A stretch of 59,607 bases of DNA from Desulfocapsaceae bacterium (lineage in GTDB: Bacteria > Desulfobacterota > Desulfobulbia > Desulfobulbales > Desulfocapsaceae), in the NCBI GenBank assembly GCA_031292275.1, contig JARLHL010000057.1, forward strand, positions 1-59,607, read 5' to 3'. A model generated the notes under the pieces. The model was not told where the DNA came from, searched no databases, and was given only the letters and a program-made list of their open reading frames with translations. Made by a program: the position numbers and the translations under genes. Each line of letters starts with the position of its first letter. Positions within the stretch are counted from its first letter, which is position 1. This document shows, piece by piece, positions 6,964 through 56,345 of the stretch.

Positions 6964-7488
6964 ATGACAAATAGAAAATACATCTTTTCATGGGACCTTA
7001 TCGGAGATATTGAACTCGGACGCCCTAACCTCGGACCCACTACACGCATTGAAGTATACCGGCTTTTGCAGTATGTCTTTCGGGATGTTCTTGAAAGGCA
7101 TTTCGGCACTGAAATGACCGATACCCTTTTTTTTGAGGCCGGCAAACAGGCAGGCACCGAATTCTTCAAGAAGTTCTGTTCAGAAGTATCCGATCTGAAT
7201 GAATTCGTCACCACCCTGCAGGACCTGCTCAGAGATCTCAGCATCGGTGTCATGCGCGTTGAGGCGGCAGATCTTGAACGCGGCTCCTTCGTTATCACTA
7301 TTTCTGAAGACCTGGATTGTTCAGGGCTGCCGGAACTTGACTACGAAACCTGTGTGTATGACGAGGGATTTATTGCCGGATTAATGGAAAGTTTTACGGG
7401 TAAGGAATTCAAAGTCAAGGAAATTGACTGCTGGTGTACTGGAGACCGGACCTGCCGGTTTACCGCGAACATGGTGGAGCAACGTTGA
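6964..7488 (+). CDS. V4R (4-vinyl reductase) domain protein
   Basis: SWDLIGDIELGRPNLGPTTRIEVYRLLQ is the typical V4R N-terminal signature. A Cys-rich C-terminus is present. The TGA stop overlaps a TTG in the kinase frame (TTGA). Confidence 0.7.
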   Translation: MTNRKYIFSWDLIGDIELGRPNLGPTTRIEVYRLLQYVFRDVLERHFGTEMTDTLFFEAGKQAGTEFFKKFCSEVSDLNEFVTTLQDLLRDLSIGVMRVEAADLERGSFVITISEDLDCSGLPELDYETCVYDEGFIAGLMESFTGKEFKVKEIDCWCTGDRTCRFTANMVEQR

Positions 7489-9884
7489 CTTCCGAAATCA
7501 CATACCTTGCCGATCTGCTTCTCAAGGTCTTGCACAACAGGAAGGCGCCTGAATCCCTCCCCGCAGAATTTTCAGATCAGAAAGAAGTTGCGTCGCTCTT
7601 TAATGAACTCTTACAAATACGCAGTTTCGTCAAAGCAGTGGCAACCGGTGACCTTTCAGGCCAACTTTCCTCTAAGGGCTACACTGCCGGAGTCCTGAAA
7701 GGACTGCAGGCCAGCCTGAAGCACCTGACATGGCAAACACAGATGATCGCTTCAGGGGATTTTAGTCACCGGCTGGATTTCATGGGAGATTTCTCTAAGG
7801 CCTTCAATTCGATGACTACACAGTTGAAAGACTCCTACCGCATCATCAAGGAGAAAGAGACACAACTGAAGGCCATCAACTCCACGCTTACCCAGGATAT
7901 TGCCGAGAGGAACCGGGCCGTGCATGCCCTCCGGCAAAGCGAGGAACGGTATCGTGCATTGGTTGAAAATGCACCGATCGGCATATTCAAAAGATGTCTC
8001 GACGGAGATTTCCTGTACTCAAACCCCAGCCTTGTCAAAACATTCCGCTGTCACGATACCGACGAATTTTTCGCCCGATACGGTACTGTACAGCACCGCT
8101 GGCGGTTCCCGGAAGAACACGAAAAATTAATGGAACTGCTGTTGCGGCAGAAGAGGGTCAACAATTACGAAATGGAATCGCGGCTGGTCGATGGAACCAG
8201 TATCTGGGTAGCGCTTTTCTGTACATTCGACTCCGAAAGCGCAATTATTGACGGATGGGCTATTGACATTACCGATCGCAAACAAGCGGAAAATGATCTC
8301 AGAAACAGTGAAGAGATATTCCGTGGAATGGTGGAGTCGGCTCCCTTCGGCATTATCCTCTCCGTAGGGGAGAAAATTCATAACGAATATGTCAACCCCA
8401 AATTTACCGAACTTTTCGGTTACACCATCAAGGATATCCCCTCCGACAGGGAGTGGTGGCCGCTGGCATATCCGGAAACAGAATACCGGAGACGGACCAA
8501 AGCGGGATGGAACAGGCTGATCGAGAACGCCATACGTACTCAATCAGCCGTGGCACCCACGGAGACAGTGGTCACCTGCAAGGACGGTTCGACGAAAGTT
8601 GTCGAATTCACGTTAATTCCCCTTGGCGAAAAAAATATTATTTTTGTAACGAATCTCTCCGAGCGCAAGCTGGCAGAGGAGGCGCAGGCCAAACTGCAGG
8701 CCCAGTTGACCCATGCGCAAAAGATGGAGTCTGTCGGCAGACTCGCCGGCGGAGTCGCCCATGACTTTAACAATATGCTCGGGGTTATCATCGGCAATAC
8801 GGAGATGGCTCTGGACAAGGTGGACCCGCAGCAGAACATCTATCGCGACCTGCAAGAAGTCCTGAAAGCAGCCAGACGATCAGCCGATCTGACCCGGCAG
8901 CTCCTGACCTTTGCCCGTAAACAGGCCATCACCCCCCGGATTCTTGACCTTAACGAGACTGTGCAGGGGATGCTTACGATGCTGCAGCGCCTTATCGGCG
9001 AGGACATCACCCTTGCCTGGCAGCCTGAAGCAGACCTTTGGCCGGTCGAAATAGACCCGTCGCAGGTCGACCAGATCCTTGCCAATCTCTGTGTCAATTC
9101 CCGTGATGCCATCACAGGGATCGGCAGGGTCATTATAGAAACAGGAATTACGTCCATCGATGAAAAATACAGCGCAGTGGATCCTGACTGTATCCCCGGC
9201 GACTATACATTGCTGGCAGTCAGCGACAACGGCTGCGGTATGAATAAAGAAGTCATGAAAAACCTCTTTGAGCCGTTTTTCACCACCAAAGAAGTCGGCA
9301 AGGGGACCGGACTCGGATTGGCCACAATTTATGGAATTGTAAAACAGAACAATGGCTTTATCAACGTATTCAGCGAGCCGGGCCGGGGATCCGTCTTCAA
9401 AATCTATCTGCCCAGATACACCGGCTGCAGCAGCCAGGCGGAGGATGAAGAATTGGCGAAAATTGCCCCTCGGGGATCTCAGACCATCCTGGTGGTTGAA
9501 GACGAGGCGGCAATTTTGCGAATGACCACCTCGCAGCTTAGACTTCTCGGATATACGGTGCTGTCTGCGTCCACGCCAGGCCAGGCGATCAGGCTGGCAA
9601 CCAAGACCCCCGGCGCAATTGATTTGCTGTTAACCGACGTGGTTATGCCCGAGATGAATGGCCGGGTCCTTGCCGAAAAGCTGTTCTCCATTTATCCAAA
9701 TCTTATATTCCTCTTCATGTCCGGCTATTCACCCGACACTGTAGCGCACTACGGAGTACTGGAGAAAGGCGCAAACTTTCTCCAGAAGCCATTCTCCAGA
9801 AAGGACCTGGAAATCAAGGTGCGACTGGCCCTGGAAAAAGGCAAAACCAGTCCGGACAAAGCACCCTTTGAGATAAGTCATTAA
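7434..9884 (+). CDS. Hybrid sensor histidine kinase (HAMP-like, 2x PAS, HisKA, HATPase_c, C-terminal REC)
   Basis: PAS segments (ERYRALVENAPIGIF; EEIFRGMVESAPFGII), the H-box ESVGRLAGGVAHDFNNML, HATPase [47 protein letters not shown]...LLTDVVMPEMNG. The start is uncertain: ATG 7434 overlaps the V4R gene by 55 nt, and a TTG at 7485 would give a coupled TTGA overlap. Confidence 0.9.
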   Translation: MYWRPDLPVYREHGGATLTSEITYLADLLLKVLHNRKAPESLPAEFSDQKEVASLFNELLQIRSFVKAVATGDLSGQLSSKGYTAGVLKGLQASLKHLTWQTQMIASGDFSHRLDFMGDFSKAFNSMTTQLKDSYRIIKEKETQLKAINSTLTQDIAERNRAVHALRQSEERYRALVENAPIGIFKRCLDGDFLYSNPSLVKTFRCHDTDEFFARYGTVQHRWRFPEEHEKLMELLLRQKRVNNYEMESRLVDGTSIWVALFCTFDSESAIIDGWAIDITDRKQAENDLRNSEEIFRGMVESAPFGIILSVGEKIHNEYVNPKFTELFGYTIKDIPSDREWWPLAYPETEYRRRTKAGWNRLIENAIRTQSAVAPTETVVTCKDGSTKVVEFTLIPLGEKNIIFVTNLSERKLAEEAQAKLQAQLTHAQKMESVGRLAGGVAHDFNNMLGVIIGNTEMALDKVDPQQNIYRDLQEVLKAARRSADLTRQLLTFARKQAITPRILDLNETVQGMLTMLQRLIGEDITLAWQPEADLWPVEIDPSQVDQILANLCVNSRDAITGIGRVIIETGITSIDEKYSAVDPDCIPGDYTLLAVSDNGCGMNKEVMKNLFEPFFTTKEVGKGTGLGLATIYGIVKQNNGFINVFSEPGRGSVFKIYLPRYTGCSSQAEDEELAKIAPRGSQTILVVEDEAAILRMTTSQLRLLGYTVLSASTPGQAIRLATKTPGAIDLLLTDVVMPEMNGRVLAEKLFSIYPNLIFLFMSGYSPDTVAHYGVLEKGANFLQKPFSRKDLEIKVRLALEKGKTSPDKAPFEISH

Positions 9885-11590: not shown

Positions 11591-11737
11591 TGCAAATATC
11601 TAAAGCTGATATATTTGCATTAATTCAAGATGCCCCATGCGCATCATAGAACTTTCCTAAGCATTCTTTCCGGCTTGTTACCGTCGTTTCCGTATCTGCG
11701 TTCCATAAAACTCGAATTCCGGTCTTGGTTCACGCGC

Positions 11738-14700
11738 ATGCCCTATCCCGATACGCCCTCCACGAAGACAAAGACTCGCCATCAGGCCACAAGTCCCGGC
11801 AGCAACCCTGTGAACATCAGGCCATCGGTCCCGGCAACGGTGGGAATAGGCGCGTCCGCCGGCGGCCACGAGGCCCTGGATCATCTTTTCCAGGCCCTTT
11901 CTCCCGACTGCGAACTCTGCTTCGTCGTCGTCATGCATCTGCCTGCAGACGGTCCATCCCTCCTGGCCGAACTCATTGGACACCAGTCCGCGATGCAGGT
12001 ATTGACCGCAGAAAACGAGATGCCGCTGCACCCGAAAACCATCCATGTGGCTCCACCGGGCATGGACCTGACTGTACGTGGCGGCCGGTTTCACCTGCAC
12101 CCTCGTCAGGATCAGGATATGCCGCATCACCCCATAGATATTTTTTTCAAATCACTTGCCGGGGATCTTGGCCAGAATGCCATCGCCGTGGTGCTCTCCG
12201 GCTTCGGCTCCGACGGCAGTCAGGGGGTCAAATGGATCAAAAAGGAGGGCGGGGTCGTCCTGATACAGGATCCGACGACGGCCATCCATCCCTATATGCC
12301 TCAGAACGCCATCGCCGCCGGGGCCGCCGATCTGATCCTGCCGGCGGCAGAGATCGCCGACAGGCTGACCAAGATCTCGAGGGACCATGGAATCCATGCT
12401 CCGCGCGCCTGTCTGAACATCGCCGCTGATGAGGACCTGACCCCCCTCTTCAATCTCCTGAGAGACCGGACCAGCCACGACTTCAGCTCGTACAAGAGGA
12501 ACACCGTGATCCGACGCATAGAACGCCGAATGACGGTCAAGGCCGCCAAAGAATTCAACAACTACCTGGAAGTCCTTGCAGAGGACCCTCAGGAAGCCCA
12601 CGCTCTCTGTCAGGATCTCCTGGTCGGCGTTACAAGTTTCTTCAGGGACCCCGACGCCTTCGACGTCCTCAACCGCGAGATTCTGCCCTCCCTTTTCGCC
12701 AATCGCGACAGGGAAGAGCCCGTGCGTATCTGGCATGCCTGCTGTGCCACCGGTGAAGAGGCCTACTCTGTAGCCATGCTGATTCTCGAGTACTTCGACG
12801 CCCAGGGCCTGCAGGCCAAAGTGCAGATCTTTGCCACCGATCTCGACGAGACCGCAGTCACCCAGGCCAGGGTCGGAATCTATTCCGATGACATCAAGCG
12901 GGAGGTGAGCCAGGAGCGTCTCCAACGCTTCTTTATCCGCAATGAGGGGCGCTGGCAGGTGAATAGCCGGTTAAGGGAGATGATTGTCTTCGCGACCCAT
13001 AATATCATCAAGGACCCGCCTTTCTCGCATCTTAACCTTCTCGTCTGCCGAAACTTTCTCATCTATCTGAATCCGGACATCCAAAGGCTGCTGCTCCCGC
13101 TTTTTCACCAGGTGCTGGTCCCGGGAGGATACCTCTTCCTGGGGTCAGCCGAGACGGTGGGTCTTCACGACGATCTGTTCAGCGCCGTCAACAAGAAGTG
13201 GAAAATCTTCTCGCGGCAGGGGGGGAAAAGCCGGGCCGAGGCTCTCTTTCCCTTCTCGGGCCCGGTCCGCAAGCTGTCCGACATCGAGCGTTCATACAAG
13301 TCCTCAGAGGCCGACGAGGCAAAGACCCTCGCCGCTGCCGAGAAACTTCTCATGGACCGCTATGTCCCCGCCCGCATAATCATCAACGAGAAGAGCGAGG
13401 TCGTTCATGTCTCACAGCGCGCGGGAGCCTATCTGCTGACCCCGGAAGGAAAACCGACCCAGGATCTCCTGAAAATGGCCCGGGAGGAGTTGCGACCTGC
13501 TCTCAGGGCCGCAATCTACAAGGCTTTTACCACCCAGCAGGAGATCGTCTATCGGGGGATACAGGTCATTACCGAAGGCGCGGAGGAGAGTGTCAATGTT
13601 ATCATACTGCCGTTGAAAGACTGCCCGCCGGCCTGCAAGCTGGCCGCAGTGATCATCGAGCCCGCCCCGCCGGCCCTGGTCCGTCCTCTGCCCCGGGATC
13701 AGGAGGACGGTGGCGACGCCGCCAGGAATTCACTGACTCGACAACTCGAGGAACAGCTGCGGGTGACGGGAGAGCAGCTCCGATCCACCAGCGAACAGCT
13801 GGAGACCTCCAACGAGCGGTTTACGCAGGCCAACGAAGAGCTGATGACGGTAAACGAGGAACTGCAGTCCACTAACGAGGAGCTGCAGTCCACCAACGAG
13901 GAACTGGTCACCGTCAACTCAGAGCTGCAGAGAAAGATGGAGGAACTCAACCAAAGCAACAGCGATATGGAGAACCTCTTCGCCAGCTCCGAGATTGCTG
14001 CCATTTTCCTTGATCGCGGCCTGCACATCAAGCGGTTTTCCCCGGCCATGGCGACAATTTTCAACCTGATTCCGGCTGATACCGGTCGGCCCTTCCGGCA
14101 TCTGAACAGCTCCATAGACTGGTCCTTTCTCCCCATCGACACGACAGCGGTTCTCGAGACCCTCACCCCAGTGGAACGGGAGGTCTGCTCAACGGTCGAT
14201 GGACGAACCTTTATTATGCGGGTCCTGCCCTACAAGACCACCGAAGGCATTGTCGACGGCATTGTCGTCACCCTGGTCGATATCAGCCAGCGTAAACAGG
14301 CAGAGAGGGCCCTGTATGCGACTCAGACAGCCCTGCGCGAAGGGGATGAACGGCTGCGGTTTGTGCTGGAAAGCTGCCACATCGGCGCCTGGGACCTTAA
14401 CTTGGATAACCATACCACCTCCCGCTCGCTGGAGCATGACCGCATCTTCGGTTACCCTGAACCGCTGCCTGCCTGGACACTGGAGATGTTCCTCGAACAT
14501 GTCCTGCCGGAGTACCGCCGGGATGTGAAAGAGATGGTCGCAGCGGCCATGGCGGCCAAGCAAGGATGGGCCTGCGAATGCCGCATCCGGCGGGCGGACG
14601 GTCAGATCCGCTGGATCTGGTTTGCGGGCCGCCATCTCACCGACCTGGCCGGTCACAGCCGGGTTGCAGGGATTATTCAAGATATAACCGACCGAAAAGA

Positions 14701-17473
14701 GGCTGAAGAGGAAAATTCCAGATTATTGAAGATCGTCCAGGAGGAGAAAGACAGACTGGCTGTACTGATCAACAGTATCACCGATGAGGTCTGGTTCGCC
14801 GATACCCAGAAGAAATTCACCCTGGCCAATCCTTCAGCCCTCAAGACATTCGGCTTGGAGGTCATGGGCCAGATTGATATTGAGGCCTTTGCCGCCAGTC
14901 TCGATGTGCTCCGCGCCGACGGAAGCCGGCGTCCCGTCCAGGAAGCCCCTCCTCTGCGCGCCCTGCAGGGCGAGGTGGTGAAGAATGCCGAAGAAGTCAT
15001 CCGCAATCCCGTCACCGGCGAACAACGCTATCGGGAGGTCAGCTCCAATTCGGTCAGAGATGCTCAGGGGAGTATCATAGGCGCCGTCACCGTTGTCAGG
15101 GACATCACCGATCGGAAGCGCGCTGAAGAGGCGCTGCGCAAATCCCGATCCAAGCTGGAGGCGGCCCTGTCCAGTATGACCGATGCGGTCTTCATCTCCG
15201 ATCAGGATGGGCAGTTTATCGAGTTCAACGATGCCTTCGCGACCTTTCACCGATTCAAAAACAAAGACGCCTGCCTGAAAAAATTTGCCAGTTACCCTGA
15301 CATTATCGAGGTTTTTATGGCCGACGGGGAACCCGCCCCCGTAGAGATGTGGGCTGTTCCCCGGGCCCTGCGCGGAGAAACCGTCACCAACACGATATAC
15401 GGCCTCCGGCGCAAGGATACCGGCGAAAGATGGGTCGGCAGCTACTCTTTTGCCCCTATCCGTGACAGCAGGGGAGTCATTTCCGGCTCGGTGGTGGTGG
15501 GACGCGATATCACCGAACTTGTGAAAAATGAAGAGGCCCTCAAGACAAGCGAACAGCTGTACCGCTCCCTCTTCGACAATATGCTCAACGGTTTTGCCTA
15601 CTGCAAAATGATCTACGACAATCACGAACCGTCTGACTTCATCTATCTGAACGTCAATGCGGCCTTCGAGGACCTGACCGGCTTGAAGGATGTGGAGAAC
15701 AAAAAGGTCTCGGAGGTTATCCCGGGCATTCGCCAGTCTGACCCTGAACTCTTCGAGATCTACGGCAGGGTCGCTTCGTCCGGTATTCCTGAACGCTTCG
15801 AAACCTTCGTCCAGGCCCTTGACATGTGGTTCTCAATCTCCGTCTACAGCCCGAAGAAGGAATATTTTGTCGCTATTTTTGATGTGATTACAGAGCGTAA
15901 GCGTGCCGAGGAGGCGCTCATCCTCAGCGAGCATCGACGAAGCCTGGCCCTGGAGGCCTCACATGCGGGGACCTGGGAGTGGAATCTCGCGACCAATGAA
16001 AATATCTGGTCCAATGAATTATGGCACCTCTACGGACTCGAACCCTTCAGCTGCAAACCATCCTACGATGAATGGCTGAAGACAATCCATCACGACGATC
16101 AGGCAAAGGTAGAACAGGCCCTCCGGCAGGCGATCGCCCAGGGTACTGCCTTCAATATCGAATGGAGGGTAGCAAAAACCCAGTGCTGGCTGGCTTCCCA
16201 CGGCCGGGCCTTGAGGGACATCCATGATCATATTGTCAGTTATGTGGGCACCGTTATGGATATCACCGAGCGCAAACTGGCCGAGGAGGAGAAAAAATCT
16301 CTGCAGATGCAGCTTATCCAGCTGCAGAAGATGGAGGCAATCGGCACCCTTGCAGGAGGAATAGCTCATGATTTCAACAATATACTTGGAGCTGTCATCG
16401 GCTTTGCCGAGTTGGCAAGGGATTCGATCCCGATGGATTCTGAGGCCGCAAACGATCTCGACAAGGTCCTGGAGGCGGGTGACCGGGCGACCCACCTTGT
16501 CAAACAGATCCTGGCCTTCAGTCGCCAGGCAAATTCTGAAATGGTTCCGCTGGAGCCTGTCCATCTGGTCAAGGAGACCATCAAACTGCTCCGTCCGGCC
16601 CTGCCTTCGACCATCACAATCAAACTGAATCTGGAAGCGGCAACAAAATTTATCCATGCCGATCCCACCCAGATCCACCAGATCGCGATGAATCTCTGCA
16701 CCAACGCCTTCCACGCCATGGAAAAGACCGGCGGCATCCTCGAAATCGGTCTCATGGACTGTCAGGTCTCCTCTCAGGACCTGCCGCCCCACGCCAAGGT
16801 ACAGGCCGGGAAATTCGTTGTACTTTCCGTTGGCGATACTGGACCGGGAATACCGCCGGAGATACAGACCAAGATTTTTGAACCGTATTTCACCACCAAG
16901 GAAGTCGGCAAAGGCACCGGTATGGGCCTCTCCATCATCTACGGCATTGTCACCACCATGGGCGGTTTCATCACCTGCGAGAGCGAACTGAATAAAGGAT
17001 CGATATTCCGCGTATTTTTCCCAGCAATTGAACCAACCCCCGGTATAGCCATCGACCGTAACGATACTATTTCCTCCGGCGAAGAACATATCCTCTTCAT
17101 CGATGACGAGATCATTCTCGCCGAGATGGGCAAAATCATGCTTGAACGCCTAGGCTATACCGTAACACTTCGGACCAGCAGCCTGGAGGCTTTGGAACTC
17201 TTCAAGACCCAGCCGAATCTGTTTGACGCCGTCGTTACCGACCAGACGATGCCCGGCATGACCGGGATGGACATGGCACAGAGGATGCTGGAAATCCGGC
17301 CGGATATACCCATCATACTCTGTACGGGCTACAGCACTCTGGTCAGCGAAGAACAGGCGAAACTCAATGGAATCAAAGAATTTATCATGAAGCCCATGTC
17401 AAAAAAGGATATTGCCCAGCGGCTGAGGAGCGTACTGGATGGCTCCGCTCAGGAGACCACAGCCCCTACATGA
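11738..17473 (+). CDS. Giant chemotaxis-type signalling fusion: CheB methylesterase + CheR methyltransferase + coiled-coil linker + multiple PAS + HisKA/HATPase_c + REC
   Basis: CheB domain ([16 protein letters not shown]...VVMHL), CheR domain ([11 protein letters not shown]...[17 protein letters not shown]), heptad linker [27 protein letters not shown], at least 4 PAS blocks, the H-box [16 protein letters not shown], HATPase [48 protein letters not shown]...[11 protein letters not shown]. The ORF opens at 11630; the start is assigned to the ATG at 11738 (MPYPD...). Confidence 0.9.
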
Positions 17474-17705: not shown

Positions 17706-17877
17706 TTCTCCATCTCCTTGCCCCAAAAAGGCAATTATCGTAAACCCTATCGATGCAGCCCGCCCCCCGGCCTCAGACAAAAGGGACGAACGGGGATGCC
17801 TTCAAACGGATAATAGGGATGCGGTTGATACAGTCAAGAACAAGATCTTTTTTCATTGAGCCCTTTTTGCAAAAACT

Positions 17878-18219
17878 CTAATAATAGTCCTCACGGCCAT
17901 TGCGATTATTGCGCCGATCCCCGTAATGGTCGCGATGGAAGCAGAGCACCTCATCAGGGATCCTTCCCAGGTAGGGATCTCCCCACGGTCCATGCCCGGA
18001 ATGCGACCTGTGCCAATTGCTCCCATCGTGCCGCCACCAAAATCCGCCATAGAAAAATGGTGCTGCTGCGGCAACCGGTTCGGCGACCGGCACCGGGGCA
18101 GACACTGTCACGGCCACCCCCTGAGAGGCACCGCCTGGATCGACGGTCGCTGACAACACGATTGCCGCAACAATGAAAGAACGCCAGAATCTGCCTTTTT
18201 TACACTGTTTTTTGTTCAT
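17878..18219 (-). CDS. Small secreted Trp/His/Gly-rich protein, unknown function
   Basis: Signal peptide MNKKQCKKGRFWRSFIVAAIVLSA. The mature part is ...FFYGGFWWRHDGSNWHRSHSGHGPWGDPY...HRDHYGDRRNNRNGREDYY. It lies on the same strand between the two other small secreted ORFs. Confidence 0.45.
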   Translation of the reverse strand: MNKKQCKKGRFWRSFIVAAIVLSATVDPGGASQGVAVTVSAPVPVAEPVAAAAPFFYGGFWWRHDGSNWHRSHSGHGPWGDPYLGRIPDEVLCFHRDHYGDRRNNRNGREDYY

Positions 18220-18242
18220 TCCAGGCCACCGTCGCAAGGATG

Positions 18243-18575
18243 TTACCGGCCGATCTGACGACTGACGGCGTTCTCCTGCTGATTAAGCGTCCTCTGCTCC
18301 TGCTTGGTAATATGACCGCCGTCCTGGCTTGCCATATCCCGTTCTTCCTGGCGGATCTGCCGATCTTCATGATGAAGCTTTGCAGCCTGCCCCTGCGTCA
18401 AGGCCCCTTCTCTCACCTTATTATTGATACGATTATTCTGATTTTCCAAACGCTCATTCACCTGCACCCGTCGGGGATGATCCTGCGCCCAGTCATCGGC
18501 AAAACTCTCGGTACGGCCGAAGAAAAAGAGGACTGCCGCCAACATTACAACCATCATTGTGAGCTTTTTATTCAT
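18243..18575 (-). CDS. Periplasmic LTXXQ-motif protein (CpxP/Spy/ZraP-like)
   Basis: Signal peptide MNKKLTMMVVMLAAVLFFFG; Gln/Arg/Glu-rich helical protein with an LTQGQ motif (LTXXQ) and a second TLNQQ. Confidence 0.5.
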   Translation of the reverse strand: MNKKLTMMVVMLAAVLFFFGRTESFADDWAQDHPRRVQVNERLENQNNRINNKVREGALTQGQAAKLHHEDRQIRQEERDMASQDGGHITKQEQRTLNQQENAVSRQIGR

Positions 18576-18876
18576 AGTACGCCTTCCCTTCTTGAGAGGT
18601 ATTGATCGGACGTTTGTCTCCTCACCTCGAGGAAACAGCCTTTGTACTCAAGAAGACGGCAAGCATTGCAGTTTTGTCTACAGAGGATGTAAAAAAAGGG
18701 CAGAAATTCGATCGGACGGCCAAAGGCAGGGGATATCGGCAGATCGTAAGCCTGATTCAAGGACTGCGCCCATGCACCCGGACTCCAGATCACCTTGAAT
18801 ATTATGGAATCACCTCGTAAGGCCGCCTGCTTCCACCCCATTTCTCCAAGATGCCCCTCTCCCGCCCGGTCAAGAG

Positions 18877-20489: not shown

Positions 20490-20916
20490 AACCGATTGCC
20501 GGGAAAGGATCTCCGGCATTGATCCATTGAGGAGATGTTTTGAGGCAATACGGTACTCTCTCATGACGGCATCGGTCTTCCTTCCCTCCCGCCACGTACG
20601 CAATTTACCTCGGAACCGCGATATTGGGATATAATCTGTCCTGGCGGTTGCCGAAGGCAAGTACTCCAGGAACCGAGCACGCAACACTGTTTTCACGATG
20701 ATCAATGTCAGAAAATAATACAGCCCGTATCGGGATCAATTACATGAATGTTCCCCGGGAATTGGGGGAGCGCCGGACCAAAGAGACGCCTTTCCCTATT
20801 TCGTTGCGGCAGATCGGTTTGGTTGCACCATGCTGGTTTATGGAAAGTTTCATGCATTCACACCTGTATCAGCAGTAACGAACCTGTTATTTATGCCATC
20901 ATAAAAGGAGATGACT

Positions 20917-21621
20917 ATGACCAGATATTTCTTCAGACCTTTACTGTATGCGACAACCGTTATTTTCTGTTTTGCGACGCATTCCGTGGCGGAAGATCAG
21001 CGACGGATCGTACTCAATGAAAAGCAATTCAAGGAATCGTTCCTTGACACGGTCAGTGTCTCAGGCGGTATTCGTGCCGGCTTCATGTACCAGAGCCCCC
21101 TGGAGCATGTCGACATCAATGAACTCTATGTCAATTTGCAGCATGATATAGAGGATCAGGATGCTGTTCTCTGTGTAAACATGGTAAGCCGTGACGGCCG
21201 ATATTCAGCCTCGTGGGACTATGCTCTGGGGAAACAAGCTGCCGGCTCCATCGCCGTCACCCTGCCGTCAAAATATCAGACACAGGTGTCGAGCTATTCG
21301 CCCGATGCATTAGTTGTCCTTGCCGCCATAGCGAAAAAAGAATGCGGCTCCGGCGAAATGAAATATGTCCCGACCAGCTGGGGCGCAGCTACCAAATCCG
21401 ACTATATACTGTATGTAAATTCAGGGAATACGGATACGATTATCGGTATTCCGGGCCAGACGGAAAGGATTCAGTGCGCCAGGATTACCGCTGACAGCAC
21501 GATTGCCTATGATACGCGCTGCATAATTGCAAAAGATATTCTTGATGAGCCTAAAAGTATATTCCTGGTGAGAAAAAATTTCGGCAACAGGCTGCCAAAC
21601 GTCGAGTTTCCTGTGAGATAA
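20917..21621 (+). CDS. Secreted hypothetical protein
   Basis: AAGGAG 6 nt upstream of ATG 20917; signal peptide MTRYFFRPLLYATTVIFCFATHSVA. No recognised domain. Confidence 0.5.
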   Translation: MTRYFFRPLLYATTVIFCFATHSVAEDQRRIVLNEKQFKESFLDTVSVSGGIRAGFMYQSPLEHVDINELYVNLQHDIEDQDAVLCVNMVSRDGRYSASWDYALGKQAAGSIAVTLPSKYQTQVSSYSPDALVVLAAIAKKECGSGEMKYVPTSWGAATKSDYILYVNSGNTDTIIGIPGQTERIQCARITADSTIAYDTRCIIAKDILDEPKSIFLVRKNFGNRLPNVEFPVR

Positions 21622-21624
21622 CTG

Positions 21625-22662
21625 GTGAAAATCACGAGGACATTAAAAAGATTTTTAGCGGTAATAGGAAATGTCTTTCTTGCTGCAGCGGTATCCGAAC
21701 CTGAAAAGGATCACTTTCGGAACTTATCGAACAGGCACCCTCGTTATTTGCATTTCATAGCATTATTATTCTGTATTTACGTATTATTTTTGATGTTTTT
21801 GCTAACCAGAGCCGTCATAAGCTCCCTGACCACCGGCTCATTCATTATTTCCGCGAGAACGGAACGAATTGAATATCAACCCGACAGCATTGATCCCCCA
21901 AGAATAGCATTCCATAATGCAACATTTCATTGGGATGAGATCAGTGATGAGAAGTTTGACCCATCAGTTTCGACCTCAACGAGATCAAAATCATTGCCTC
22001 CGGAAAGCAGCGGTTCCCTGCAGATTCAAGGTAAATCAAAGATTGTTTTTTCAAGGGTGGGTACAGGGCCGCTGCACATTCAAATTCAAAGCAAAAACCC
22101 TACCATTGTCTACGATGAAAATGATCAAAGGCAATTTTCTCTGCCCGGTGTTGTTGATTTGGTGCTGAACGATCCGAATCAATTAATAAATCAAGGCATA
22201 TCATGGAAATACAACATCGACGGACCGTTAATAATAGGTCGGGTCCCGACCTTTGGCCTGCAGTTGCAGAACGGACTCCTGCTTGAAGGTGAAATCCAGA
22301 TGGTTGCCAAACAGTTATTGTCCGGCAACCATTACAAAGTGGAACCGTATAAGCTGCAGTTGGGTGACGAAATACAATTCGTGCCCGCCGAGCCAAAGAC
22401 AAGCGGTCTGGTGACATTCGACGCTGATCGAGGAATGCTGATCGTCGCCATTGTCGAGGCTCGATCCGCGACAATAAAAAAATTTAGAGAAACGAATTTT
22501 AAAATTCAAAATAATTTGTGGTCCAAACTCGGCAAGGATCAGGAACTGGTGATAACCTGGGCGATAATGCTTCTTGTACCGGGTATCCTGGTGTTTCTTA
22601 CCCGTTTATTGTATTTCCACCTGCAACTGAAATCCCATGAAGACTCTCAGCAGTCCCCATGA
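21625..22662 (+). CDS. Membrane protein, unknown function (N-terminal TM pair and a C-terminal TM anchor)
   Basis: GTG start 3 nt after the preceding stop (operon-like). Hydrophobic segments FLAVIGNVFLAAAV, FIALLFCIYVLFLMFLL, ITWAIMLLVPGILVFLTRLLYF. Confidence 0.45.
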   Translation: MKITRTLKRFLAVIGNVFLAAAVSEPEKDHFRNLSNRHPRYLHFIALLFCIYVLFLMFLLTRAVISSLTTGSFIISARTERIEYQPDSIDPPRIAFHNATFHWDEISDEKFDPSVSTSTRSKSLPPESSGSLQIQGKSKIVFSRVGTGPLHIQIQSKNPTIVYDENDQRQFSLPGVVDLVLNDPNQLINQGISWKYNIDGPLIIGRVPTFGLQLQNGLLLEGEIQMVAKQLLSGNHYKVEPYKLQLGDEIQFVPAEPKTSGLVTFDADRGMLIVAIVEARSATIKKFRETNFKIQNNLWSKLGKDQELVITWAIMLLVPGILVFLTRLLYFHLQLKSHEDSQQSP

Positions 22663-22722
22663 GCAATAAGCAGCTGGAATGCATATGATTTTCTGCAAGA
22701 TATTTCCAATATCGCCTCCATT

Positions 22723-24420
22723 TTGAATAAAAAGAGATACTTCATGCATCGCTATTTTCACATCAGCACTGTCTTCTTTTTCCTCAGCATCTGCTTTGCG
22801 CAAGCCTCTTTTTCATCAGATGCATATATCAAAGTCGATGATAACGAACTCGGCCAGGGCATACTGCGTCAACGGGGCATTGAATGTCTACTCATAACTC
22901 CTGCCCATGTTGTTGAAAACGCTTTAAAAGTCGACGTGACCGTGGCCGACAAGACAAAATATCCGGCAGAAATTATGGAATTATTTCCGGGTGATATCAG
23001 CGTGCTGCGGATCAAGGGCGATGAGTCGTCTCCGTGCAGCCATGCAAGCTGGTCTAACACGAGCAATTTAAACGCCCTGCTGGAAAAGGAAAATCAGGGC
23101 GAACTGCGAACCATGCTCGCTGACGGAAGTATCCGCATAACTCCCGTTGATATTGTCGGCTATGATAAATACCGAAACATTAATGTCCGCCCGACCCATC
23201 AATCGGATGCAATTTTGAAAGGTGAGAGCGGGAGCCTCCTGTATATTGCCGGTCAGCTTTCCGGGATGCTTCTTTCCGTGAAAGACGGCATTGGCAATGT
23301 TATTCGTCAGGACGTGCTGGCCAATACCCTTGCCTTGTTTTTTGAAGATTCTCATCAGGCGGATAGACAGGGCGCGCATCAGCCGAATAGCAAAACCACC
23401 GCAAATCCTCCGGCTCAAGAAACAGCCCTGACCGGTCAACCAGGAATTTCCGGTATCATTGCCGAAGGCGCAGGAGTCGAATATCCCGTCACCTTGCAGG
23501 AGAACAGTCCCGTCCGCCTGAGGTTTTCGGCCACAGGGGATACCGAGAGATACAGTGTCGAAATATGGGATTCAAAGCATAAGGCAGTCTATCGAAATCC
23601 GGGCAAAAATTATTCAGGGACAGAATCCGTCAGTATCCCCTTTACACCGCCTCGAAATGATACCTACACGCTGCACATTACGGGTACTCAAGGCGAAGGG
23701 AAGTACGCAGTCGAGATTCAAACGATAGCCTTGGATTCTCAATTGCGCAGTCCGAAAAATATTATCCGGATTGGAGAAAATGCAACTGAGGGTATACTTG
23801 CCCAGGGCGCCGTTGCCGAGTACCAGGTCAGGCTGGAGGAAAACAGCCCCGTCCGTCTGGAATTCCCGGCCACAGGAGATACGGGGAAATACAATGTCGA
23901 AATATGGGACTCGAAGAAACAAGCAGTCTATCGGGATCCGGGTAAAAATTATTCCGGGACAGACTCCGTCAATATTCCCTTTACGCCACATCAAGATGAT
24001 ACCTATACACTGCGTATTATCGGGACTGAAGGAGAAGTGAAGTATACCGTCAGGATAGCATCGATTGCCCTGAACGCTCAATTGCGAGGCGATGCAAATA
24101 TTATCCAGATTGGAGGCAATTCCGTTGAAGGCGTACTTGCTCAGGGCGCTGTCGCAGAGTACCGGCTTGAGCTGGCGGCATACACCCCGGTCCGTCTGAA
24201 CTTTTCCGCAACAGGGGACAACGGGAAATACAATGTTGAAGTATTTGATTCAAATGGGAATATTGTATACCGGGATCCCTACAAACGGTATAGCGGCACC
24301 GAGGCGGCCATGCTCCCGCTCACTGTATCCAAAAACGATACCTATTTAATACGCCTCAAAGGAATTGAAGGGGAATGCAAATTTTCGCTGAATATTATGC
24401 GGGCGCCGGGGAAATCGTAG
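22723..24420 (+). CDS. Secreted trypsin-like serine peptidase with three C-terminal PPC (pre-peptidase C-terminal) domains
   Basis: Signal peptide. A chymotrypsin-fold catalytic His context LLITPAHVV and Ser context KGESGSLLY. Three repeats of about 113 aa (ENSPVRL.F.ATGD..KYNVEIWDS...YR.P...YSGT.S..IPFT....DTYTL.I.G..GE.KY.V.I) match the PPC-domain pattern. Confidence 0.75.
   Translation: MNKKRYFMHRYFHISTVFFFLSICFAQASFSSDAYIKVDDNELGQGILRQRGIECLLITPAHVVENALKVDVTVADKTKYPAEIMELFPGDISVLRIKGDESSPCSHASWSNTSNLNALLEKENQGELRTMLADGSIRITPVDIVGYDKYRNINVRPTHQSDAILKGESGSLLYIAGQLSGMLLSVKDGIGNVIRQDVLANTLALFFEDSHQADRQGAHQPNSKTTANPPAQETALTGQPGISGIIAEGAGVEYPVTLQENSPVRLRFSATGDTERYSVEIWDSKHKAVYRNPGKNYSGTESVSIPFTPPRNDTYTLHITGTQGEGKYAVEIQTIALDSQLRSPKNIIRIGENATEGILAQGAVAEYQVRLEENSPVRLEFPATGDTGKYNVEIWDSKKQAVYRDPGKNYSGTDSVNIPFTPHQDDTYTLRIIGTEGEVKYTVRIASIALNAQLRGDANIIQIGGNSVEGVLAQGAVAEYRLELAAYTPVRLNFSATGDNGKYNVEVFDSNGNIVYRDPYKRYSGTEAAMLPLTVSKNDTYLIRLKGIEGECKFSLNIMRAPGKS
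23455..24405 (+). repeat. Three tandem repeats of about 339 bp each (the in-frame PPC-domain repeats inside the protease gene)
   Basis: The repeat units begin near 23455, 23794 and 24133, which is a 339-bp period. Protein-level identity between units is high. Confidence 0.7.
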
Positions 24421-40029: not shown

Positions 40030-41694
40030 ATGCTGAACAATCTGAAGATAGGAACCAGAATGCTTCTCGGTTACGGTACTGTTATCATATTGCTGTTGGT
40101 TGTTGGGGGGTACTCGATTGTATCGATCAGATCTTTGAATGATGAGATAAGCGCAGTGGTTAACGTGCGTATGCCGAATGCTGAGAAAATCCATAAGATT
40201 GCTGATAATCTTAACGTACTTTCAATAGGTTTCAGGAATATCATTATCGATACCAGGCAGGAGCAGCAAACGGCTGAATTGGAAAAAATCGCCAATGCAC
40301 GTAAAACGGTCAGCGAAATTATCGAATTCCTTCAGAAGGATTTAAAAACCGAAAAAGGAAAAGAATTGCTTCAGAATGTAATAGAGGCGAGAAAGGAGTA
40401 TGTGACATCCACTGAAAATTTCATGAAATTCATAAAATCACAGCAGCTTAATGACGCAAAGGAGTTGTTATTGACTACTGTGCATGACGCTAAAATAAGA
40501 TATAGCGACAGACTGAATGAATTGAAAACGTATCAAACGGAATTGGCTACTTCTGGGGGCAAGAAAGCGGAGGGTCTCGCATCTGAAGCCGTGGTAATTA
40601 TATCCGCAATTCTTATCGCCGCCTTGGTGGTCAGCATCATTTCTGGTATTACCATAATCCGATCCATCACGAGCCCGATATCAAAGACAGTTACGTTAGC
40701 TGAAGCGATGGCTAGGGGGGATTTCACCTCAGAGCTGAAAATCGACCAAAAAGATGAAATTGGAACGATGGCTACAGCTTTGAACAAAATGATATCTCAA
40801 CTCAGAGAAATGATTACAGAAATTATTGGGGGAGTAAACACATTGTCATCATCTTCCTCTGAGCTTGCGGCTGTATCAAAACAGCTTACAGGCTCGGCTC
40901 AAAGCTCCACAGACAAATCCAACATGGTGGCCGCCGCAGCTGAAGAAATGAGCTCTAATTTCCAATCCGTCTCCGCTGCAATGGAGCAATCAACCAGCAA
41001 TGTCAATATGGTCGCTTCGGCTACTGAGGAAATGAACGTCACTGTGACTGAAATTGGACAGAATGCTGAAAAGGCAAGAAGCATTTCCGAAAACGCTGTT
41101 AAACAATCGTCTCTTGTGTCTGAACGAATGACTACTCTTGGCGAATCAGCCAAGAAGATAGGCAATGTGACAGAAACAATCACCGAAATATCGGAGCAGA
41201 CCAATCTTCTGGCTTTGAACGCAACAATTGAGGCAGCCAGGGCGGGAGACGCAGGAAAAGGATTTGCCGTTGTCGCCAACGAAATTAAAGAACTGGCAAG
41301 GCAGACCGCTGCCGCAACCATCGATATAAAAAACCAGATCGACGAGATGCAGCACACCACCCAAAATGCGGTTATAGACATTAGAGAAATTTCAAATGTC
41401 ATTTCTGAAATCAATAGCGTAATTAATGGCATTGCCACGGCAGTTGAAGAACAATCCACCGCAACAAATGAGATTTCCAATAATATCTCGCAAGCATCAA
41501 TGGGTATCGGCGAGGTGAACCAGAATGTAGCTCAGAGTGCCACAGCAGTAACTGACATCACCCGGGATATATCTGCAATCAATCAGCAGTCAAAAGAGGT
41601 TAGAGAAGGCAGCAGTCAGGTTCAAGGAAGCGCACAAGGGCTTTCGGATCTCGCCAGACAATTGGAAAGTCTTGTAAAGAAATTTAAAGTCTAA
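40030..41694 (+). CDS. Methyl-accepting chemotaxis protein
   Basis: N-terminal TM, periplasmic/4HB-like region, second TM, HAMP, and the MCP signalling domain with the highly conserved [35 protein letters not shown]. Confidence 0.95.
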
Positions 41695-48033: not shown

Positions 48034-48612
48034 TCAGTTGATGTTATGAACAGAATTAAATCTCTGGACATCGGTATTGATCAAAGTCCGCACCGATTTC
48101 ACATAACCGTTCGGATCATAGGCATTGCCGTTATCCTGCAAACGATAGGAGCCGATGTTATAACTTAACACCGCCTTATCCCATCGTGCCGGACCCGAAA
48201 AGCGGGAGAGCAGATATTTGAAATAGGAGGTGGCGATTTTGATATTGAAGACATCGTCGTCACGAATCTTTCGGCGAAGTTGGTCGTCCGGGAGAAGATC
48301 GGATTTGGATAAGCCCCATATCTTGACCAGGACAAATTTAGCGGTATCAAGTTTGATTTGCATGACCCCATAGCACTGATCGTTTCGAGCGGCCTTGGCA
48401 GGACCCCGAGATCGACCACCATTGGTCTCTCGCAAAAGGAGTCCCTGAATCGTCTCCGGGCAGCCAATTTTTTTTCCTTCCTGATAGGCCACACTCATGA
48501 GTTTGCCATAGGGCAGAATTGTTGATTCTTCAGCCAGCCTTTCCCGGGCCGAAGCCATTATTGGTAATAGAGTTATAAATAACAATGCGATAAATATTTT
48601 ATTAAATAGCAT
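48034..48612 (-). CDS. Lytic transglycosylase-domain protein (SLT family), secreted
   Basis: Signal peptide MLFNKIFIALLFITLLPIMASA; catalytic region LLRETNGG...CYGVMQIKLDTAKFV (E.S...GLMQ-type motif). Start taken at 48612; the ORF track's longer start is at 48702. Confidence 0.7.
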   Translation of the reverse strand: MLFNKIFIALLFITLLPIMASARERLAEESTILPYGKLMSVAYQEGKKIGCPETIQGLLLRETNGGRSRGPAKAARNDQCYGVMQIKLDTAKFVLVKIWGLSKSDLLPDDQLRRKIRDDDVFNIKIATSYFKYLLSRFSGPARWDKAVLSYNIGSYRLQDNGNAYDPNGYVKSVRTLINTDVQRFNSVHNIN

Positions 48613-49012
48613 ACAGAAATCCTTTGTTGGAACCTGAGGGCACATGAGACTATTTCTCAACGGCTCCGTGCTGCAGGAAACCAGGCATTTGATTGACAAC
48701 AATCAGTTAGGTTCTAGAAATCCAGACTTTCACAAAAGGAACCGCAACAGAGGGGGTGGACACTTCACAAAGCGTCTAAACTCACTCCATTTCAGCGGAG
48801 ACTAATGAGAAAGAGTTGCCAGAATCAGGGCAGACAGAAGAAAGAGTAATGACAAAACAGTTGCCGGGCTGGCCTGCAGCGATACTCTCTCTATGGGTTG
48901 GACGCGGTGGGGATATCGTTGGGTGGTAAATTTGATAGGCTGCATTAGGTTCACCTCAATAATGTGAAATTCATTAAGGGCACAGCCTGCCGAGATCTTC
49001 GGCTCAGACCAT

Positions 49013-49043
49013 TGCCCTTCCAAATGCCTACGAGGTTAGCTGA
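49013..49043 (+). promoter_or_regulatory. Conserved 31-nt motif upstream of the KdpE-like regulator (copy 2)
   Basis: TGCCCTTCCAAATGCCTACGAGGTTAGCTGA; identical to copy 1 at about 27 of 31 positions. Confidence 0.35.
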
Positions 49044-49496
49044 CGGGCTCGGGCTTGGAAGTGCCCTATCCTAAAGTTCAGGAATACGCCCCAAAAAATG
49101 GGTCCCCCGCATCCGCTGCGGAAGCGGATCTCGGCTACAATTTATGGGTAGCACGATAACCCCATTCGAAACTTATTGCCAATATATATTTTTCGAAAAA
49201 AAGAACACTTAGGTAAATTGCAAATAATTACAAAGTTCTAATAAGCTCTAAAATCAAAGCTGCCTCTTAGCGTATTTGCCGGGCATTACCCCTGAACGAT
49301 CCTATCTTGATGATATCAAGACACCTTTTGCCTCATTATTGACTCTATCTTTATGTGATCATGTGTATAAATAGAATGAGATAATACTGATCGTCAGACA
49401 TGGGGCAAAATCAGGGCATAAAACCATTTGGGCAGAGGTGTTCCGGCTAACGTGAGACTGCCCCTCAAGGGCATGCCCAGCACGGAGGGACTTATG

Positions 49497-53783: not shown

Positions 53784-56345
53784 ATGATAAGTCCTTTTCG
53801 ATTCATTCTCTGGCTTTACCTAAAAAGCCTAGGCCGTGTTAAACTTACAATTCGAGGTCGCATTTGGTTATTGAATCTGGTCGCCATTGCAGCCTTCGTC
53901 TCCATAATCATCTGCAGCTTGATCCAGACCTATTATATAAATACCTCCATACAATATATCTTCCGTCAAAGTTTCCCCGGGGTCCTGTTGGTAACCGAAC
54001 TCGAATCGGCATTGCACCGTCTGCAGGCCGATGTCACCAGAATGGCGATGGAATCGGATTCCAACCATCTACAGAATACCCAATCAAAGGTGGATGAGGA
54101 GCGCAGGCAAGCCCTGGAAAAGGTTGGACAATGCAAAGATCTGTTGACCTCTGAAAGACAGCAGGGATTATTGGAAGAATTGAAGGAGGAACTGAATAGT
54201 TACTTCCAGGCGGTGGAAAATGTCAATAAAATGGCTCTTGCCGGTAACCTGGTGATCGCTCAGGCTGTGCTGGCCGGCTCGGTTGACTCCTATCTTATGG
54301 AAATCGAACAGGTTGTAGAAAACCTTCGGATCGAGGCCGGCCGGGACCAGAACGCCGCGACAGAAAATCTCGATCGAAACATGCATCGTGCAATCCTTCG
54401 TTTCAGCGGGTTGGCCCTGTCCGCCGTTTTGCTGCTGTTGAGTATCAGTGCCATTATCCAAAGCAGTATTCTCAGTCCACTCCGCAGAATGGATGCAACC
54501 ATTCAGGAAATCAGGAAAATATCACAGAACAAGAATTACCATGTCAGAGTGGAAGTAAGAGGAAAGGACGAATTTGGTCTGCTTGCCGTCAGCTTCAACG
54601 ACATGATCGAACAAATCGAAAAACGCGATTTATACCTTGAAGAGCAGGTTGAAAAACGCACCCAGGAGCTGGAGGAGCGGACCCTCGACCTGCAGGAGGC
54701 CAAGGAAAAGGCAGAGGCGGCAAATAGAGCAAAGAGTCAATTTCTCGCCAACATGAGCCATGAAATCCGAACACCGATGAACGCGATTATCGGGATGACG
54801 CATCTGGCAATAAACACACACGAAGAAAACAAACAGCAAGTTTTTTTGCAAACAGTAAAACATTCAGCCGAAAGTCTGCTCGGCATCCTGAACGATATTC
54901 TCGATTTCTCCAAAATTGAAGCGGGACAGCTCCAGTTGGACAACGTCCCCTTTAATCTGCACCAATTGCTGGAGAGCGTCATTTCTACTATGAATGTACC
55001 TGCAGTGGAAAAAGGGATCCGGCTACAAAAAGTTATACAGGAAAACCTTCCAAATGCATTTATTGGGGACGATCTTCGTCTGCGACAGATTTTACTCAAT
55101 CTTGTCAACAATGCCGTGAAGTTTACCCAATCCGGATCCATCACCATCGAGGTCAGTTTAGAAAACGAAATTTCTAACGGAGAAGCTGTACTGCATTTCA
55201 TCGTCAAGGATACCGGTATAGGTATTCCACCCGAAAAGGTTTCCCTTATTTTCAACAACTTTGAACAGGCCGACAATTCCCATGCCAGACAATACGGTGG
55301 GACCGGTTTGGGGTTGTCGATCTCTAAGCAGCTGATTACCCTGATGAACGGCAGCATCTGGGTAGAGAGCCAAGTAAGCAGCGGCAGTTCTTTTCATTTC
55401 ATCATCAAGCTGCCACCCTGTCCGGAAAAACTGGTGACGGCTGCTTCTACAGAGGCAGGTCTTTCAGAAAATACAATCAAGGGCTTATATATTCTGATTG
55501 TCGATGATAATAAGGTGAATCGAGACGTTGCCAGCATGATGCTTGAACAGGACCATATGGTCTCAACTGCCGCTAATGGTCTGGAGTCCTTGGCGGTTTT
55601 AGCTTGCAGGAGTTTTGATGTTGTCCTCATGGACGTACAAATGCCGGTCATGGATGGTCTGGCGGCGACCGCTGTTATCCGTTCCATCGAGCAAGGGAAT
55701 CCTGTACCCAGTATGGTACCGGACAATATAAGGATAGCTCTCGCAGGAAAACTTACCGGCAAACATGTACCGATCGTTGCGATGACGGCCCATGCAATGA
55801 GCGAAGATCAAAAGTTGTGCTTCTCAGCCGGCATGGACAGGTATGTCACCAAGCCCTTTCAGTATGATCACCTCGTTTCTGTTATCCAGTCATTGATTGG
55901 TGACGGCCCTGAACGATGCAGCGTCAAAAATGTCGGCTTGGCAGGCGACACTCCCCCTTCTCCGGCTGATATTTCCTCAGGGGAGACAAGAGTTGAAGAT
56001 GTTATCAGATATTTTAAAACCACAACGAATTTTACTGATGAACAGATTGCAAGGCTGGTTGCAGCGTCTTGCGAGGGTATACGTGAAGAACTTGCGAACG
56101 CATCGGCTGCGCTGAGAGATGAGGATTATCCTGCCCTGGGCAGGGCGGCTCATACCCTCAAGGGAACCTTGGCGCAATGCGGGCTTTCCGTCTGGAGTGA
56201 AAAAGCTCAAGAAATCCATGCAAGCGCCAGGAATAATCAGGATTTCCCTTACCTAAGCGAATTGGAAATTTTAAAAAACGGAGTACATTCATTTCTTGAA
56301 TACCGAAAGCTACAAACAGGACAGGACGTTTTCTATGAATTATAG
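53784..56345 (+). CDS. Hybrid sensor histidine kinase with a C-terminal Hpt domain (TM sensor, HAMP, HisKA, HATPase_c, REC, Hpt)
   Basis: H-box [17 protein letters not shown], HATPase [26 protein letters not shown]...[28 protein letters not shown]...[13 protein letters not shown], Hpt [14 protein letters not shown]. Confidence 0.9.

Follow-up and report, generated by a model that had tools for sequence, protein, structure and literature searches.

We describe a gene from a 59,607-nucleotide stretch of DNA of a Desulfocapsaceae bacterium (assembly GCA_031292275.1, contig JARLHL010000057.1, positions 1 to 59,607 of the forward strand), which as a whole we refer to as the window. The gene, at 11738..17473 on the plus strand, encodes a single chain of 1911 amino acids (aa) plus stop, in which a CheB methylesterase, a CheR methyltransferase, seven PAS-fold domains and a hybrid histidine kinase are combined. 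We call this product the megaprotein. Between its first two PAS-fold domains lies a long acidic helix built of N-E-E-L heptads, the NEEL helix. We tentatively suggest, with somewhat less than even confidence, that this helix is a built-in methyl-accepting substrate that tunes the kinase.

Reading frame and start codon

The gene occupies a single uninterrupted plus-strand open reading frame (ORF), 11630..17473, as seen in the ORF list and its translation. The frame is open upstream of 11738 to a further ATG at 11630; translation from ATG 11630 gives 1947 aa and from ATG 11738 gives 1911 aa. An earlier note on this DNA had described a 1947-aa protein at 11738-17473. That ORF is real, but the two figures disagree: the coordinates correspond to 1911 aa, and the 1947 aa belong to the upstream ATG. 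The same note had left the choice between the two starts to be checked, and an alignment of the N-termini of 45 homologues supports the downstream one. These proteins start 30-45 residues ahead of the first conserved CheB strand (VGIGASAGG), which is the position of ATG 11738, and the extra 36 residues encoded from ATG 11630 have no counterpart in any of them, for which reason that start was rejected. We have therefore taken ATG 11738 as the favoured start on the strength of this alignment, and number all residues from it.

Could so long a frame be an artefact of assembly or of a frameshift that fuses separate genes? Relatives are known both as split forms, i.e. a core plus a partner gene, and as fused forms, so the question is a fair one. 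However, the reading frame is continuous with domain matches over its whole length, and many independent relatives (the family representatives P0001-P0003, P0076, P0086, P0117 and others) are fused in the same order through to HisKA, HATPase_c and the receiver. Fused PAS-HisKA-HATPase_c-receiver tails are in fact common among relatives, with lengths of up to 2033 aa. We regard an artefact as hardly conceivable.

Domain architecture

Domains were called from Pfam matches above the gathering cut-offs, from sequence matches to the PDB, and from AlphaFold models that were searched with Foldseek. Two models were used, one of the core of the protein (residues 1-871, predicted local distance difference test (pLDDT) 75.7) and one of residues 520-871 (pLDDT 88.7). 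The order from the N-terminus is: CheB catalytic domain, CheR, a flexible tether, a PAS-like domain, the 91-residue heptad helix, PAS_10, five PAS domains, HisKA, HATPase_c and a receiver. All of the domains that had been listed for checking (CheB, CheR, PAS, HisKA, HATPase_c and Response_reg) are recovered by Pfam above gathering cut-offs and in the order that had been claimed. The coordinates below are all on the plus strand.

The CheB catalytic domain lies at 11837..12382 (aa 34-215; Pfam CheB_methylest at aa 35-210, 1.2e-51; PDB alignments to 6ymz and 3sft, and a Foldseek match to 3sft). The methyltransferase, comprising CheR_N and the S-adenosylmethionine (SAM)-binding domain, follows at 12434..13213 (aa 233-492; Pfam CheR_N at aa 233-284, 1e-12, and CheR at aa 298-489, 2.4e-51; PDB alignments). 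AlphaFold predicts residues 217-231 and 496-527 to be disordered, so both enzyme domains would sit on flexible linkers. The second of these stretches is the predicted tether (13223..13318, pLDDT below 50), which leads from CheR to the first PAS-like domain.

There is no Pfam match to the stretch 490-670, even at E<=1. Both AlphaFold models show a PAS-type fold at aa 524-642, in which an N-terminal helix caps a five-stranded sheet (13307..13663; pLDDT about 88-96), and we refer to this domain as PASa. The heptad helix (13715..13987, aa 660-750) connects it to PAS_10 (13988..14284, aa 751-849; Pfam match at aa 744-849, 7.6e-27; AlphaFold), and Foldseek aligns PASa and PAS_10 onto the tandem-PAS structures of DosP, FixL, PpsR and a Brucella LOV-PAS kinase. 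Five further PAS domains fill 14345..16267 (aa about 870-1510), where several Pfam PAS models match on five separate segments and the TIGR00229 sensory_box model matches in 6 stretches. As PASa adds to PAS_10 and to these five, the megaprotein has seven PAS-fold domains, PASa by structure prediction only. The earlier count of at least four PAS modules was right that there are multiple PAS domains, but too low. Self-BLAST reveals no recent internal duplication of PAS domains.

The C-terminal part was said to be a complete hybrid kinase, and the expected residues are all there. The HisKA dimerisation and phospho-acceptor domain (16343..16528; Pfam aa 1536-1597, 3.3e-12) carries H1544 in the motif HDFNN. 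HATPase_c (16661..17026; Pfam aa 1642-1763, 4.6e-20) has an N box at 1652, a G1 box at 1700 and a G2 box at 1726. The C-terminal receiver (17090..17425; Pfam Response_reg aa 1785-1896, 2.6e-19) has the acidic pair DD at 1789-1790, the phospho-acceptor D1835 and K1885. The megaprotein is a soluble member of its family.

Two enzymes with intact active sites

The CheB triad consists of S40 (in GASAGG), H67 (MHLP) and D159 (GSDG), which align to GASTGG, QHMP and GMGNDG of 6ymz; the triad is S164/H190/D286 in the numbering of Salmonella CheB. In an alignment of 40 relatives D159 is invariant, while S40 and H67 are at least 90% conserved. Alignment with Salmonella CheR places its R98, Y235, E129 and D154 at R303, Y443, E341 and D368 respectively, and these four residues are invariant in the same 40 relatives. 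R98 and Y235 have been named as catalytic in the Salmonella enzyme (PMC3447774). The models agree: Foldseek superimposes the CheB model on 3sft with TMt 0.86 and a root-mean-square deviation of 2.3 Å, and the CheR model on 5xlx with TMt 0.84. The earlier note had considered that the catalytic residues of CheB or CheR might fail to be recovered, in which case the domains would be degenerate. All catalytic and SAM-binding residues are present, and nothing in the megaprotein looks degenerate.

These domains share their folds and catalytic residues with canonical CheR (EC 2.1.1.80; 1af7, 5ftw) and CheB (EC 3.1.1.61; 1a2o, 3sft). The basic alpha2 face of CheR_N is also kept (R260, R263 and R264, plus R259); in the canonical enzyme this face touches the acidic methylation helix of receptors. 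The differences are that both enzymes are in one chain, that CheB has no phosphorylation-controlled N-terminal receiver, just 33 poorly conserved and low-confidence residues ahead of the catalytic domain, and that the gene lies outside any che operon. Salmonella CheR has a 4-residue insert in its beta-subdomain that is missing here, and the alignment of this subdomain to the Bacillus enzyme is free of gaps. The NCBIfam models for the canonical enzymes match weakly. For PRK00742 (CheB) the match is confined to positions 153-352 of the profile, with a score of 135 where 293 is required, and PRK10611 (CheR) scores 115.4 bits against an equivalog cut-off of 435.

These sub-threshold scores could be taken to mean that neither CheB nor CheR is catalytically active any longer and that both are relics, retained as ligand-binding modules (e.g. 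sensing SAM or S-adenosylhomocysteine) or as scaffolds for the kinase. In the same direction, internal deletions have removed CheB from several lineages that are otherwise intact, which implies that one of the two activities, if not both, can be done without. Yet all of the tested catalytic residues are conserved across the 40 relatives as described above, the domain E-values of about 1e-51 and the fold matches are strong, and the variants that have lost CheB keep CheR. We find it very improbable that these are silent relics.

The NEEL helix

The acidic heptad helix, 91 residues long, is a single continuous helix with no turn in both AlphaFold models (pLDDT 82-96). A long heptad-repeat linker had been reported in the earlier note, and it does stand at this position, but the quoted peptide starts with V-NEELQS and not with T-NEELQS. 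The helix is built of uninterrupted N-E-E-L-x-S/T-x heptads, which number 9 in the window protein and 8-12, usually 11, in its relatives. This copy number varies among relatives by whole heptads. A 21-nt DNA tandem repeat that encodes NEELQST heptads at 13853..13906 on the plus strand (2.6 copies, 90% matches, Tandem Repeats Finder) fits with gain and loss in such units.

The helix has 19 acidic and 6 basic residues in 87 aa. No other segment of the core is as well conserved: relatives match the query at an identity of 0.75 here, compared with 0.52 for CheB and 0.66 for CheR. Across the six central heptads of 240 sequences, the first position is Asn in 75-100% (with Lys substituting in one heptad) and the fourth is Leu or Phe in 89-98%. 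Both glutamates are present in 96-100% for five of these six heptads and in 90-98% for the sixth. With Asn at position a and Leu at position d of the heptad, both glutamates would occupy the exposed b and c positions. A near-invariant, exposed Glu-Glu pair is unusual for a purely structural coiled coil, and the fact that these surface positions are as fixed as those of the core points to a recognised surface rather than a mere spacer.

The methylation helices of methyl-accepting chemotaxis proteins (MCPs) are likewise acidic and carry heptad-spaced Glu-Glu pairs that are followed by small residues (E-E-x-x-S/T-S/T). For the comparison we used the receptor methylation consensus [ASTG][ASTG]xx[EQ][EQ]xx[ASTG][ASTG], which is reportedly that of Alexander & Zhulin 2007, a paper cited in PMC2577667. 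The repeated unit of the helix, E-E-L-Q-S-T, matches the C-terminal half of this consensus. The half consensus, [EQ][EQ]xx[ASTG][ASTG], occurs 4 times in the helix, where 0.49 occurrences are expected from composition-matched shuffles (p=0.0025).

Structurally, aa 520-871 are best matched by the PAS-helix-PAS arrangement of FixL, DosP, PpsR and the Brucella LOV-PAS histidine kinase, which follow the same downstream logic of PAS to DHp/CA. The inter-PAS helix of the window protein is far longer than in these proteins, at 91 residues, and far more conserved than the domains that it links; it is also preceded by two protein-modifying enzymes.

A large family in fused and split forms

The megaprotein is nothing out of the ordinary within its family, which is very large and already annotated, as KEGG K13924 (cheBR), 'CheB/CheR fusion protein'. 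Members are labelled 'two-component system (chemotaxis family) CheB/CheR fusion protein' by JGI, and 'chemotaxis protein CheB' or 'CheR family methyltransferase' by NCBI. A search with the 871-residue core at E<=1e-10 returns at least 7996 proteins, the best of which is 69% identical among the matches listed; named members are matched at E=0, with 45-69% identity and 94-100% coverage of the 871 aa. Searching with the helix plus PAS_10 yields 16,525 clusters at 50% identity (E<=1e-3), or 4801 at E<=1e-30.

A scan of one genome per species identified at least 570 loci across phyla. They occur in Geobacteraceae, other Desulfuromonadales, Desulfobulbia, Smithella, Cyanobacteria, Acidobacteriota, Alphaproteobacteria (e.g. 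Methylosinus), Nitrospira, Verrucomicrobiota, Chloroflexota, Gammaproteobacteria, Polyangiaceae and one Methanomicrobiales metagenome-assembled genome (MAG). The closest genome loci among the matches listed are 55-58% identical and come from Geobacteraceae and Desulfuromonadales. The earlier statement that such fusions exist in some Desulfobacterota and Cyanobacteria is thus true but far too narrow, as the family is present in many phyla and has its own KEGG and JGI names. The description of the family as poorly characterised agrees with our literature searches, which returned passing mentions only, e.g. the 'CheB-CheR hybrid' recorded in the Rhodospirillum centenum genome. We found no mechanistic account of the CheB/CheR fusion family in a literature whose subscription journals were mostly outside the coverage, and no mention of the heptad peptides in the texts searched.

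Members of K13924, such as the Geobacter sp. OR-1 'putative 104.1 kDa protein in hypE 3' region', have the same core order of CheB catalytic domain, CheR, PAS-like domain, NEEL helix and PAS_10, and many of them share the PAS-HisKA-HATPase_c-receiver tail. With hidden Markov models for PASa, the helix and PAS_10 that were made from the family itself, this order is found after CheR in 59 of 144 representatives and in 75 of 80 genome loci. The window protein differs from its nearest relatives in being about 400 residues longer, which amounts to roughly three PAS domains, and in having fewer heptads than is usual.

Many relatives consist of the core only, at about 860-1050 aa. Of the 43 core-only loci whose downstream sequence extends far enough, at least 25 have a partner gene as the next one on that strand, compared with 1 of 31 long fused forms. 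The partner gene is often just 3-60 nt away or overlaps by 4 nt; examples are found at L066:12613-14334, L037:12659-14389, L032:12643-14361, L030:10199-11839 and L025:5737-6975 (locus and coordinates). Its product has a conserved N-terminal helix (RRxAEExL ... RLxHELEVHQIELEMQNxELR ... YDFAPxGYF), then a PAS domain and then a variable output. The outputs include sigma-54 AAA+ activators, HisKA kinases, a multi-PAS HisKA_3 kinase and, in the archaeal MAG, an HWE/HisKA_2 kinase. Because partner genes accompany core-only loci and hardly ever fused ones, the core behaves as a module with two ways of carrying an output: joined to it in one chain, as in the window protein, or alongside it in an operon.

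These partners suggest a possible target for the enzymes. CheB and CheR might modify some other non-receptor helix in trans, for instance the N-terminal helix (..HELEVHQIELEMQNxEL..) of the PAS-output proteins or the helix of enzyme-less helix-PAS_10 proteins; for the window protein the target would then be a second molecule or another protein of the cell. The tight and often overlapping gene pairs speak for this, since the partner products start with a highly conserved helix on the same x-x-E-L heptad as the NEEL helix, whatever the output, as does the existence of the few helix-PAS_10 proteins that seem to be without CheB and CheR. On the other hand, the partner motif is absent throughout the window, the ORFs downstream of the megaprotein have no Pfam matches, and the fused form already has an output of its own. 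The partner might equally bind the core by helix-helix or PAS-PAS contacts, unmethylated. We consider modification of another such helix distinctly unlikely.

The losses within the family are also informative. CheB has been lost repeatedly by internal deletion, which in representatives P0099, P0118 and P0120 has left a 'VGIGAS' stub directly before CheR. In P0225 the stub stands directly before the helix, and CheB, CheR and PASa are all missing. In total 25 representatives look genuinely CheB-less, and those with the stub before CheR retain CheR, the helix and PAS_10. From this pattern of deletions, CheR and the helix look like an indispensable pair. CheR is N-terminal to the helix in 90 of the 144 representatives, and most of the others that were inspected start inside PASa and resemble gene fragments. 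A strict linkage between helix and CheR was considered and does not hold: it is true for the most part, with a few proteins that seem to be enzyme-less, and the count is a soft one because many entries are fragments.

What do the enzymes methylate?

The megaprotein gene is flanked upstream by genes for a V4R protein and a PAS hybrid kinase, and its other neighbours are a divergent major facilitator superfamily transporter, two small ORFs and a TauE gene. None of CheA, CheW, CheY or an MCP is encoded next to it. A scan for promoters and terminators found sites no more frequently than in shuffled sequences. The two small ORFs, 17856-18176 and 18240-18605, lie just downstream of the megaprotein gene and have no Pfam match. 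The nearest MCP is an orphan (4HB_MCP, HAMP, MCPsignal) at 40030-41694 on the plus strand, 22 kb downstream, which has a full methylation consensus (aa 469-479) and no che genes alongside.

What, then, is the substrate of the two enzymes? We propose that the NEEL helix is a methyl-accepting coiled coil that is written and erased by the fused CheR and CheB, either in cis or across a dimer. The core would then be a self-contained unit for adaptation or memory that works without MCP, CheW or CheA. It would drive its own kinase in the window protein, and in the split operons a sigma-54 activator or a different kinase. We put forward this full reading with some reserve, as one that is possible although we would be more surprised to see it borne out in every part than not.

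In mechanistic terms, the helices of two molecules would pair in parallel, Asn occupying position a and Leu position d, with the Glu-Glu pairs exposed at b and c. CheR may methylate and CheB demethylate these glutamates, making the helix the substrate of its own fused enzymes. Methylation would neutralise the charge of the helix and could so alter its stability or register, and the change may be relayed via PAS_10 and the chain of PAS domains to autophosphorylation at H1544 and transfer to D1835. The receptor, the adaptation enzymes and the kinase would thereby be contained in one chain, with no MCP, CheW or CheA. In the shorter relatives the output part would be a separate protein from the next gene. 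A methylation-coupled phosphorelay independent of CheA had already been suggested in the earlier note; we likewise infer it, and the lack of che genes beside the megaprotein gene is consistent with it.

Several observations support self-methylation. The basic alpha2 face of CheR suits an acidic helical substrate. The disordered tether of about 32 residues ahead of the PAS-helix-PAS_10 unit would provide reach. In E. coli, receptors hold CheR and CheB near heptad-spaced Glu pairs by a C-terminal pentapeptide on a flexible arm of about 30 residues; the tether of the window protein is similar, but covalent. The exposed Glu-Glu pairs are near-invariant and the half consensus is enriched. Finally, the helix in most cases travels with CheR, there are no adjacent che genes, and the core-only forms have partner genes. 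Fusions of CheR to a further module are known from the CheR-TPR proteins FrzF and WspC, in which the extra module controls which sites are methylated (PMC3447774). FrzF and WspC belong to che-like clusters with an MCP and CheA, whereas the window protein lacks these surroundings and unites CheR with CheB and a kinase in a single polypeptide.

A number of observations weigh against self-methylation. The full 10-residue consensus does not occur in the helix. MCPsignal is absent from the 25 Pfam matches listed for the helix at E<=1, which are to generic, sub-threshold coiled-coil families only. An MCP-like hairpin was considered and is ruled out by the single continuous helix in two AlphaFold runs, and Foldseek returns tandem-PAS proteins and no receptor structures. 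Unlike an MCP, the window protein has no hairpin that could form a four-helix bundle and no CheA/CheW-binding tip. We also looked for interchange between Glu and Gln, which would mark sites of deamidation, and found nothing in favour. Glu makes up about 96-100% of the central pairs, with almost no interchange, and Gln occurs only in the N-terminal heptads; its frequency at the second position is alike in proteins with CheB (0.21) and without (0.24). A few helix-PAS_10 proteins (P0153, P0160 and P0224) apparently have neither CheB nor CheR, and the genome does encode MCPs, including the one in the window. Lastly, the case for methylation of the helix is built on sequence and predicted models.

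The presence of MCPs leads to the main rival explanation: that CheB and CheR act in trans on the MCPs of the cell. The PAS and kinase part would do no more than regulate or localise the enzymes, or be regulated with them, and the NEEL helix would simply be a signal helix that dimerises the protein between two of its PAS domains. In catalytic and substrate-facing residues the two enzymes are the same as the receptor-modifying CheR and CheB, and the MCP in the window offers a complete consensus site. The genetic study of Wu et al. 2011 (cited in PMC6159551) reportedly ties, by its title, such a fusion in A. brasilense to chemotaxis and cyst formation, which favours action on MCPs and also counts against self-methylation. 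Geobacter genomes hold 18-34 MCPs (PMC2577667). Against this, the gene lies outside a che cluster, with CheA, CheW and CheY not nearby, and the chimeric gene of Phaeobacter has been remarked upon as not co-regulated with che genes. Both enzymes also score far below the canonical NCBIfam cut-offs given above (115 against 435 for CheR, 135 against 293 for CheB). Action on MCPs would moreover leave unexplained why the surface Glu-Glu pairs are near-invariant and why the helix nearly always accompanies CheR. We think that action on MCPs is unlikely, though far from negligible.

Other features of the window

The window is rich in signalling genes. Upstream of the megaprotein gene, the V4R-domain protein (6964-7488, plus strand) overlaps the start of the ORF for the PAS-HisKA-HATPase_c-receiver hybrid kinase (7434-9884, plus strand), and this kinase and the megaprotein share one type of C-terminus. 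A sigma-54 activator is encoded at 409-1746. At 53784-58666 on the plus strand there is a 4HB_MCP-HAMP-HisKA-HATPase_c-receiver-Hpt hybrid kinase, followed by a receiver-GGDEF-EAL protein. Three ORFs of 236, 345 and 565 aa at 20911-24420 (plus strand) have no Pfam match at the thresholds used.

On the minus strand, a cyclic di-AMP riboswitch (Rfam RF00379, 93.8 bits) at 49010-49146 lies upstream of a 222-aa ORF (48034-48702) and of kdpA, kdpB and kdpC (47440-42328). This arrangement of riboswitch and kdp genes is a known type of link between cyclic di-AMP and potassium uptake.

Significance

As an annotation the gene is routine. The conserved acidic helix and the partners in split operons, however, are concrete leads on what these enzymes methylate. 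Textbooks present reversible methylation of glutamates as the memory device of bacterial chemotaxis, and it has been seen as a property of chemoreceptor arrays. This family places both of the methylation enzymes in ordinary cytoplasmic sensor kinases of many phyla.

If CheB and CheR act on MCPs instead, then the family would link cytoplasmic signals that are sensed by PAS domains to the methylation of receptors. If the NEEL helix is the substrate, the window protein or one of its shorter relatives would provide a simple one-protein test system. Reversible glutamate methylation would then exist outside of chemoreceptors, and in a family that counts more than 16,000 sequence clusters; methylation-based adaptation would be an accessory generally available to two-component and sigma-54 systems.

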